64,000 bases of DNA from assembly GCA_964016885.1 (NCBI GenBank), contig OZ024740.1:107136001-107200000 (forward strand), read 5' to 3'. The number at the start of each line of letters is the position of its first letter. Positions within the stretch are counted from its first letter, which is position 1. Shown piece by piece: positions 17,490 through 18,911 of this stretch. This DNA comes from Eledone cirrhosa (Eukaryota). Both the position numbers and the translations under genes were made by a program. Under the pieces are notes generated by a model. The model had not been told where the DNA came from. It worked only from the letters and a program-made list of their open reading frames with translations, and ran no database searches.

Positions 17490-17525
<36 letters not shown>

Positions 17526-17790
17526 ACGGAAAAAATGAAACGATATTTCATTTCCCACTCTTAGTACGGCTGTTACTTAAATATAAGTATGTACACGTAC
17601 ATACATATATGTATACCGACGTACAGTAGTATGTATATATATATATACATACATGCACACATATATATATGAACGTATGGATTCACCGAACATTTATTAT
17701 AATGCTCGGTGTGTTTGTAAACAAACATCCCGTATTAAGCCGTAGTGTCTAGCAACCACCGTTGCTCGTTTGTTCAACACTGACAAAGGA

Positions 17791-17833
17791 ACGCTGTACT
17801 AGTTTCAAGCTTGTTAGCTATCGTCAGCAACGT
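17791..17833 (-). ncRNA. Minimal hammerhead ribozyme (422-nt unit)
   Basis: acgttg-CTGACGA-t agct aaca agct t-GAAA-ctag-TA-cagcgt. Confidence 0.88.
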
Positions 17834-18212
17834 ATACCTTCCTGCCAGATTGTTGAACGTATATACTTACCTTATGCATATTAACGGCTGAGTAGCCCAA
17901 TATGCATATCGAGTGGGTTAATCGGCCGGGTGCACCGAAAACGATAAACGGAAAAAATGAAACGATATTTCATTTCCCACTCTTAGTACGGCTGTTACTT
18001 AAATATAAGTATGTACACGTACATACATATATGTATACCGACGTACAGTAGTATGTATATATATATATACATACATGCACACATATATATATGCACGTAT
18101 GGATTCACCGAACATTTATTATAATGCTCGGTGTGTTTGTAAACAAACATCCCGTATTAAGCCGTAGTGTCTAGCAACCACCGTTGCTCGTTTGTTCAAC
18201 ACTGACAAAGGA

Positions 18213-18255
18213 ACGCTGTACTAGTTTCAAGCTTGTTAGCTATCGTCAGCAACGT
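18213..18255 (-). ncRNA. Minimal hammerhead ribozyme (422-nt unit)
   Basis: Identical to 17791-17833. Confidence 0.88.
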
Positions 18256-18577
18256 ATACCTTCCTGCCAGATTGTTGAACGTATATACTTACCTTATGCA
18301 TATTAACGGCTGAGTAGCCCAATATGCATATCGAGTGGGTTAATCGGCCGGGTGCACCGAAAACGATAAACGGTATACATATATGTATGTACGTGTACAT
18401 ACTTATATTTAAGTAACAGCCGTACTAAGAGTGGGAAATGAAATATCGTTTCATTTTTTCCGTTTATCGTTTTCGGTGCACCCGGCCGATTAACCCACTC
18501 GATATGCATATTGGGCTACTCAGCCGTTAATATGCATAAGGTAAGTATATACGTTCAACAATCTGGCAGGAAGGTAT

Positions 18578-18620
18578 ACGTTGCTGACGATAGCTAACAA
18601 GCTTGAAACTAGTACAGCGT
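18578..18620 (+). ncRNA. Minimal hammerhead ribozyme (422-nt unit)
   Basis: Same motif; stem I extends via gttcaaca..ctggcagga / tcct ttgtcag tgttgaac. Confidence 0.88.
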
Positions 18621-18823
18621 TCCTTTGTCAGTGTTGAACAAACGAGCAACGGTGGTTGCTAGACACTACGGCTTAATACGGGATGTTTGTTTACAAACAC
18701 ACCGAGCATTATAATAAATGTTCGGTGAATCCATACGTGCATATATATATGTGTGCATGTATGTATATATATATATACATACTATTGTACGTCGGTATAC
18801 ATATATGTATGTACGTGTACATA

Positions 18824-18911
<88 letters not shown>

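Follow-up and report, generated by a model that had tools for sequence, protein, structure and literature searches.

The genome analysed here carries a 422-nt hammerhead-bearing repeat whose copies end at two fixed sites, and in its two-armed, head-to-head insertions the pairing of one arm of each kind is near-obligate. By sequence criteria, this family is a young, ORF-less non-LTR retrozyme. A preliminary description of the same DNA had recognised a 422-nt retrozyme, an identification that our analysis upholds, and had missed the Penelope-type signature of its insertions. Mobilisation by the RT-endonuclease of a TA-targeting (Hydra-type) Penelope-like element (PLE) is likely, and we hold with considerable confidence that the family is moved by a Penelope-driven, two-site process. 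The element class is already known and the dependence of retrozymes on PLEs has been proposed before; the value of the present data lies in a mechanism made testable. Thousands of very young insertions give exact predictions of start sites, overhang length, strand pairing and multi-turn cDNA, and offer insertion-level evidence that retrozymes ride Penelope enzymes. Near-strict pairing in three families bears on the origin of Penelope inverted ends and tails and on retrozyme circles as transposition templates.

Metazoan non-LTR retrozymes were described by Cervera and de la Pena (2020, PMC7229834), who proposed PLEs as helpers and circles as templates for reverse transcription, and are presented as non-autonomous PLE derivatives by Li, Clavereau and Pollet (2026, 10.64898/2026.07.22.740005). 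Insertions of PLEs themselves are reported as partial tandems with an inverted 5'-truncated copy and a 30-40-bp tail at one end (PMC8557442, PMC3846280). In vitro, the Poseidon_Ac protein, predicted to act as a dimer, cuts and extends both target strands, and two internal RT start sites 3' of the hammerhead bound the tail (Frangieh et al. 2024, PMC11167929).

Layout of the insertion in the window

The window, by which we mean the whole 64,000-nt stretch of DNA analysed, contains one two-armed insertion of the family, two older loci and a separate Penelope-like insertion. Unit numbering takes window positions 18371-18792 on the plus strand as unit 1-422.

17522..18830, no strand assigned: a single insertion of the 422-nt retrozyme family, with two arms joined head to head
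17522..18373, minus strand: left arm, 852 nt, reading unit 90 to 422, 1 to 422 and 1 to 97; 3' end at fixed site A (its last 2-3 letters could also belong to the TA tract)
18371..18830, plus strand: right arm, 460 nt, reading unit 1 to 422 and 1 to 38; 3' end at fixed site B (its last 4 letters could also belong to the TA tract)
18371..18373, no strand assigned: inner junction, where the arms, both 5'-truncated, meet with 3 nt of microhomology (CGG overlap)
17498..17521, no strand assigned: (TA)n target tract, left flank
18831..18890, no strand assigned: (TA)n target tract, right flank
18409..18467, plus strand: "tail", 59 nt between site B (unit 38) and site A (unit 97), with a GGAAAUGAAA/UUUCAUUUUUUCC hairpin
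36500..36962, plus strand: older one-armed copy of the family, 92% identical, 5'-truncated near unit 5, with a site B end before (TA)n
60660..61083, no strand assigned: old head-to-head pair of short arms from a diverged subfamily, without ribozyme
20701..28931: separate Hydra-clade Penelope-like insertion in a one-A'/one-B' layout; ORF 24876-26987 on the minus strand

The two head-to-tail minus-strand units and the full plus-strand unit reported earlier are both present: TRF assigns the left arm a period of 422 with 2.0 copies (99%), and 18371->18830 reads unit 1-422 followed by 1-38. Copies of the unit within the insertion differ at 2 sites, and (TA)n meets both outer ends. A terminal redundancy of about 37 bp had also been described; the repeat exists and measures 38 nt, but is just the chance distance from the 5' truncation to site B. 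The monomer noted at 36500-36962 and the fragments noted near 60670-61080 were likewise recovered, and in the latter pair the right arm stops at B while the left arm passes through the tail to a diverged end. By analogy with Poseidon_Ac (PMC11167929), the tail is likely to be the region onto which the enzyme loads.

Palindromic, microsatellite-flanked sequence is error-prone, and the inverted layout could in principle be a long-read fold-back or assembly artefact. We consider this next to impossible: the two arms end differently and are flanked by unique sequence, some insertions carry target duplications, old diverged copies have the same layout, and an opposite-strand joint within the unit occurs in a contig of another organism (one contig, depth 4).

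The unit and its hammerhead ribozyme

At least two consecutive type I hammerhead motifs are present, one per unit, and a pattern search reads each as CGUUG-CUGACGA-U-AGCU-AACA-AGCU-U-GAAA-CUAG-UA/CAGCG (stroke at the predicted cut), set in a long stem.

18579..18619, plus strand: type I hammerhead of the right arm, found by pattern; predicted cut after 18614; helix I 18579-83/18615-19, CUGACGA 18584-90, GAAA 18605-08; U.U followed by a 4-bp helix II; 2-bp helix III with palindromic ACUAGU
18214..18254, minus strand: first type I hammerhead of the left arm, with the cut predicted to fall between 18219 and 18218
17792..17832, minus strand: second type I hammerhead of the left arm, with the cut predicted to fall between 17797 and 17796
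17797..18218, minus strand: predicted 422-nt monomer freed by cuts at both left-arm ribozymes (window 18218->17797)
18553..18639, plus strand: extended stem I flanking the ribozyme, in the predicted fold

The single hammerhead per unit and its extended stem I stand as originally described, but the label "minimal" does not. Minimal PLE hammerheads, with a long helix II and no helix III, differ from this motif, which has a 2-bp helix III, a 4-bp helix II and, at the base of helix II, U.U in place of the G10.1-C11.1 pair. By the account in PMC4209133 its build is the canonical metazoan type I, in which helix III is weak and palindromic and the ribozyme acts as a dimer; on the same account, cleavage would be expected of the dimer. 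Cleavage of multimers of the 422-nt unit is predicted, and cuts at consecutive ribozymes would, as already proposed, free a 422-nt monomer (18218->17797). Helix III does not form in the predicted monomer fold, and a lone unit without it would leave a circle uncut. In 10.64898/2026.07.22.740005, 1/9 dimers were cleaved.

Across the window, Rfam returned no hammerhead match at gathering score or E<=10, no other ribozyme class and no family at gathering score; E<=10 gave only microsatellite-driven miRNA-type matches. The opposite strand of the unit holds no hammerhead core and no CUGAnGA. Helix I is 100% paired in 16 chosen copies, four related ones having a U-G to G-U double change, a covariation that amounts to one inherited change. 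Fifteen subfamily-level variant columns miss the core and the helices (one sits in loop II), and among genomic copies the core is not extra-conserved (1.4% mutated vs 1.6% elsewhere outside CpG).

The predicted unit fold is branched, not rod-like, and contains all four hairpins named in the preliminary description; its z of -8.0 against 100 dinucleotide shuffles includes a contribution from AT-rich palindromes. No credible ORF had been seen, in agreement with a longest ATG frame of 51 aa made up of microsatellite-type residues.

A dozen more type I hammerhead-like motifs of other families occur in the window; several form short pairs in TA tracts, head to head and 90-200 nt from each other. 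The positions of the dozen are:

15150, 17188, 29814, 30085, 34612, 34912, 47024
55985, 58060/58151, 58898, 59530, 60095/60297

The family across the genome

In the genome (3.0 Gb, 1,796 contigs), the 35-place ribozyme core has 7,736 exact matches, amounting to about 0.1% of its length, with 0 in the reversed control. A unit-core search that scored 40 of 257 candidates returned at least 210 matches, and the 150 listed are all 100% identical, mostly in minus-unit arrays followed by plus units. Units measure 422-426 nt and arrays reach 22 units per insertion, older loci having mostly 1-3. The unit is also present in contigs of two other organisms. Two runs guessed to be RNA cover only the low-complexity stretch 18371-18422 and are uninformative on expression. 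Local duplications at L072 and L096 take in retrozyme insertions.

Plant LTR retrozymes, which carry type III hammerheads in LTRs, PBS/PPT and a 4-bp duplication, are set apart from this family by its type I motif, tandem units and 13-bp duplication where visible, and features of non-autonomous PLEs are present, namely an inverted 5'-truncated head-to-head copy and a tail, i.e. two fixed 3' ends. Like the retrozymes of PMC7229834, the family consists of ORF-less tandem units in the 150-450 bp range with a GC content under 50%, has one type I hammerhead per unit with a short palindromic helix III, and produces target duplications of more than 4 bp; the U.U at the base of helix II is common to it and axolotl HHR_Amex2 of that study. 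In contrast to the account given there, its insertions are mostly two-armed with two fixed ends paired A/B, and the word "inverted" is absent from the main text of PMC7229834. The elements of that study cleave and form circles by experiment, whereas the 422-nt family is known here from its sequence.

Outer ends are fixed at two sites and paired one of each

The outer 3' ends fall at site A (unit 95-97) or site B (unit 36-39), 59 nt apart, with the predicted cut 275 nt before A and 216 nt before B. Exact matches to an end joined to TA total 3,426 at A and, for two variants of B, 1,399 + 2,485 (reversed controls 0), and in every mapped arm the fixed 3' end is that of the ribozyme-bearing strand.

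Head-to-head pairs were counted from listed coordinates in the first 97 Mb of contig C1 (100 A and 135 B ends). All 25 pairs within 5 kb are A/B, against an expected 49%, and so are 26/26 within 10 kb (p = 8e-9), counts in which two pairs are one local duplicate and a 5.2-kb pair is probably not a single insertion. Loci selected by core identity gave 22/23 A/B and one A/A (L032). In a motif scan of fetched loci, 56/60 rows are A/B, one is A/A and three are B/B calls in which one of the two end calls lies inside the element, and 34 of the 60 rows come from A-anchored loci, so that B/B is impossible for those. Counter to strict pairing are L032 and, in the Hydra-clade family described below, the B'/B' locus L164/L165. 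The second arm is undetectable in about a third of A-anchored loci, and a few second arms stop elsewhere (L077, L088, L103). One-armed copies stop at A or at B, which indicates that each site is able to prime alone.

At L177 the target duplication is 13 bp. The remaining insertions sit in pure or periodic TA, and duplications are readable only where flanks allow: L116 gave a weak 12-bp call, and calls at L036, L037, L045, L053, L107, L158 and L183 were distrusted for their periodic TA flanks.

Inner junctions vary and argue against circular permutation

The inner 5' ends are scattered, 0/50 lying within 3 nt of the predicted cut site; an apparent clustering by the ribozyme stem (20/50 in 105 nt) is not significant (scan p = 0.29). 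All 25 young junctions differ from one another: 15 have inserts of 1-42 nt, several copied from nearby, 10 have overlaps of 1-7 nt, and blunt junctions are 0/25, vs 55% for random insert-free joins. We take this pattern of inserts and overlaps to be the product of alternative end joining. Most junctions link unrelated unit positions.

The preliminary description had read the differing starts of the units, together with the redundancy, as circular permutation. This argument fails, since the outer ends are fixed at A and B and only the inner 5' ends vary, the differing starts being random 5' truncations at the inner junction; fixed 3' ends plus random 5' truncation account for the apparent permutation and redundancy. 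As observations that would speak against its reading, it had named ends fixed in all copies or constant attachment to an RT ORF: the outer 3' ends are indeed fixed, at two sites, but at 60 loci at the first A ends of contig C1 no Penelope ORF is continuous with the unit. Of its proposed circular RNA replicon, the replicon, taken as RNA-to-RNA replication, finds no support, the opposite strand having no hammerhead core, and a circle is likely on evidence other than permutation.

A strong predicted structure, a ribozyme in each unit and several co-existing haplotypes would suit an autonomous, viroid-like replicon made of circular RNA that only now and then reaches the genome through reverse transcription. 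Such a replicon is very improbable in our view: besides the missing opposite-strand core, the predicted fold is branched where a rod would be expected, thousands of genomic templates are enough, and the fixed end of every mapped arm is the 3' end of the ribozyme strand.

A further alternative has one RT start: an endonuclease would resolve a DNA intermediate to make the other end, or self-priming on antisense RNA would make the inverted arm. Strict A/B pairing would be expected if the ends come from different steps; PMC8557442 ascribes the tail to resolution by the endonuclease, the proposal in PMC3846280 is self-priming that starts from palindromic junctions, and a few of the present junctions (L048, L052, L172) are near-symmetric. 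We nevertheless judge it unlikely, given that unrelated unit positions meet at the majority of junctions, by way of inserts or microhomology, one-armed copies stop at either site, and both boundaries of the tail are RT starts in vitro (PMC11167929). That both ends are RT start sites is, to us, the probable explanation.

Arm lengths, variants and the nature of the template

A cut linear monomer could yield arms of at most 275 nt, a length exceeded by 38/42 arms, the longest reaching about 7 kb. The units of young insertions are mostly uniform through both arms. L175 carries two private variants, and L034 one, in every covering unit of both arms. Genome-wide searches with one variant each found 5 (L175) and 4 (L034) other matches, all at single loci on other haplotype backgrounds, and these nine were rejected as donors; a multi-unit donor array with the variants of either locus is likewise missing from the assembly, which is haploid and from which a donor could be absent. 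One unit of L195 bears both L175 variants on an old background, which we read as recurrence. Private variants uniform in both arms, with no donor in the assembly, point to passage through one monomer during insertion, and the pattern favours a circular monomer as template, as rolling-circle copying would give. On balance we lean towards the circular monomer as the usual template. Haplotype mismatches within an insertion (29/342, vs 45% between insertions) may partly reflect age, and the sharing is therefore not taken as proof of one template.

Arms can also stem from different haplotypes, so that one RNA molecule per insertion is not obligatory: the arms of L041/L182 carry different variants (422 nt vs 424 nt with C218T), L088, L090, L103 and L077 have mixed arms, and L172 has heterogeneous units. 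L041/L182 includes a 17-unit arm in which C218T, at the free N7 ribozyme position, is found in the 3' units and is missing from three 5' units and from the other arm; C218T was also found in a contig of another organism.

A Penelope two-site insertion could equally copy a linear uncut multimer, or a linear monomer with template jumping, making the circle unnecessary. We regard this as somewhat unlikely and as an explanation to be taken seriously, as RNA left unprocessed is the main substrate in PMC11167929, where ribozyme cleavage is unneeded, as the 6.7-kb Hydra element likewise makes three-unit tandems, and as the mixed arms and the within-arm variant switches in L041/L182 and L172 accord with it. 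Against a linear template, no arm shows a donor inner junction or flank inside it (all 25 junctions differ), variants are uniform across both arms with no multi-unit donor in the assembly, and 5' ends do not pile up at the cut site, counterpoints that leave template jumping on one monomer untouched.

Expansion at the DNA level does occur. L095 and L173 consist of alternating unlike monomers with an 842-nt period, which probably grew in this way, and L195 (C21:33960600-33968600) is a satellite of the unit, with at least 19 mosaic copies all in one direction, that extends past the fetched stretch. In L095, identical alternating dimers lie inside and the end units are distinct; these bear their own mutations, and dimer circles were rejected as the cause of period-2 arrays. 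The three loci lend some credit to the idea that insertions were short, that arrays grew later by unequal exchange or slippage and that gene conversion evened the arms. As a general account we find it decidedly improbable: the longest arms (16-17 units) belong to the youngest, 100%-identical insertions with A/B ends intact, variants are common to both inverted arms, older loci are mostly of 1-3 units, and the ends are left unexplained.

A second retrozyme, a Hydra-clade element and the search for a helper

A second ORF-less retrozyme family, with a 310-nt unit (L053:5704-8252, L183-L191), resembles the 422-nt unit in the ribozyme region only. Its hammerhead has U.U, a 4-bp helix II and palindromic ACGCGU. 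A degenerate core pattern has 14,663 matches genome-wide, and all 100 listed belong to this family. It ends at 139 and 163-172, one of each in 9/9 cases, with arms of at least 24 units and target duplications of 13-14 bp (L185, L187).

The Penelope-like family of 20701-28931 (L152-L171) has a 6.7-7.0-kb unit with an intact 830-aa frame bearing RWR, DKT and CxCx5C, which are Hydra marks according to PMC8557442, where (TA)n targeting is also reported for the Hydra clade. Pfam left four Penelope frames in the window unnamed, and the clade was assigned by these motifs. The family's 3' region is long and rich in microsatellites, the helix II of its hammerhead-like motif spans about 120 nt, and it forms head-to-head insertions and some three-unit tandems; its ends are 137 nt apart and paired A'/B' in 9/10 cases, the exception being L164/L165. 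Of 64,758 candidate endonuclease matches in the genome 150 were scored, all 100% identical, and by its sequence the family is very young and intact. The one-A/one-B rule is common to the 422-nt, 310-nt and Hydra families here.

The insertion at 20701..28931 would represent the kind of helper required, as a candidate class and not as an individual partner. Its terminal repeat has no similarity to the 422-nt unit (its score of 28 is reached by 56 of 200 shuffles), and its tail measures 137 nt vs 59 nt. Homology of the 422-nt unit to pLTRs was tested in the Penelope elements at hand and none was found; nothing similar to the unit lay in the 900 nt behind 13 endonuclease matches, and searching with a degenerate hammerhead pattern returned the 310-nt family and no Penelope partner. 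A high score behind the endonuclease at L084 was rejected, because it comes from a unit that sits in a TA tract farther along.

Upstream flanks of 15 one-armed copies yielded two possible chimeras with other families and no helper. At L069 and L080, an A-ended arm stands head-to-head with an inverted piece of a different repeat family ending in TA; the foreign piece of L069 is a hammerhead-bearing repeat that is also seen behind a Penelope endonuclease in L108. These could be two-RNA insertions, and a possible lead to the helper.

A proposed mechanism and its relation to known systems

From layout, ends, pairing, junctions and targets, which are directly seen, we infer transcription, cleavage, circle, helper and order of steps. 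Arrays would be transcribed; neighbouring hammerheads would pair by way of the palindromic ACUAGU and cut, and the 422-nt monomers so freed would, by analogy, be closed by a host ligase. A helper protein on the tail would make a staggered cut in (TA)n, leaving 3' overhangs of 12-14 nt, and one DNA 3' end would prime at unit 97 and the other at unit 38. Both cDNAs would then pass through the ribozyme cut site, for up to about 17 turns, before the two truncated cDNAs are sealed by microhomology or short templated inserts and the gaps filled in. Target duplication with both strands extended would place an antisense copy on the left and a sense copy on the right with the RNA 3' ends outside, which is the observed layout; it is on this consideration and the in vitro data of PMC11167929 that we adopt two-site priming by a Hydra-type protein. 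With the template left open, the whole scheme, priming at two sites by such a protein followed by end joining, seems to us a good approximation of what probably happens.

A more specific version is offered tentatively, and we think it somewhat likelier to need revision than to hold as it stands: a Penelope RT-endonuclease dimer would sit on one 422-nt circle, each subunit would prime its own 3' overhang at its own site, the enzymes would chase each other round the circle, and the two concatemers would be sealed head to head. If this is true, a single mechanism, in use now in several families of this genome, would account for retrozyme arrays as well as for the inverted repeat and the tail of Penelope elements.

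Several published systems resemble this scheme in part. Li, Clavereau and Pollet (10.64898/2026.07.22.740005) conclude the same helper class as inferred here, on the basis of co-occurrence and pLTR homology in Xenopus and with local tandem amplification favoured, whereas our basis is the insertion signature. Head-to-head layout, a tail on one arm and target duplications are common to PLE insertions and the 422-nt family, which shares (TA)n with Hydra; unlike the PLE insertions of PMC8557442 and PMC3846280, it has no ORF, a 59-nt tail and arms of up to 17 units, and its pairing is counted here as near-obligate where these sources call it "often" or "optional". The start sites of Poseidon_Ac are alike on both strands, one-of-each pairing is not reported in the portion of the main text of PMC11167929 covered, and they lack homology to the target, vs 2-4 letters in common with (TA)n here, in a comparison between different clades. 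Non-autonomous Chlamys elements such as MRC1 (PMC8557442) are likewise ORF-less PLE dependants with multicopy head-to-tail insertions in microsatellites, but that clade is described as lacking canonical hammerheads and its non-autonomous members match their helpers at the 3' end. In literature searches on retrozymes and PLEs and in the openly available main text covered, we met neither a tally of one-of-each pairing nor retrozyme insertions with two inverted arms, either of which may be in print.

Other elements in the window

Another Penelope family, which has a hammerhead-like motif of its own, is represented at about 14500-16800 and 46300-48900 by two similar copies, both truncated at the 5' end. 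Tandem non-LTR retrotransposon copies at 6923-10348 and 11813-14047 each end at a triplet repeat, and one of them has an unbroken 1,141-aa frame with RVT_1. At 50531-53869 lie broken frames of an LTR retrotransposon that look, by eye, like RT, RNase H and integrase, and a Helitron-like segment with PIF1 helicase frames (61317-63379) adjoins the old fragment pair.
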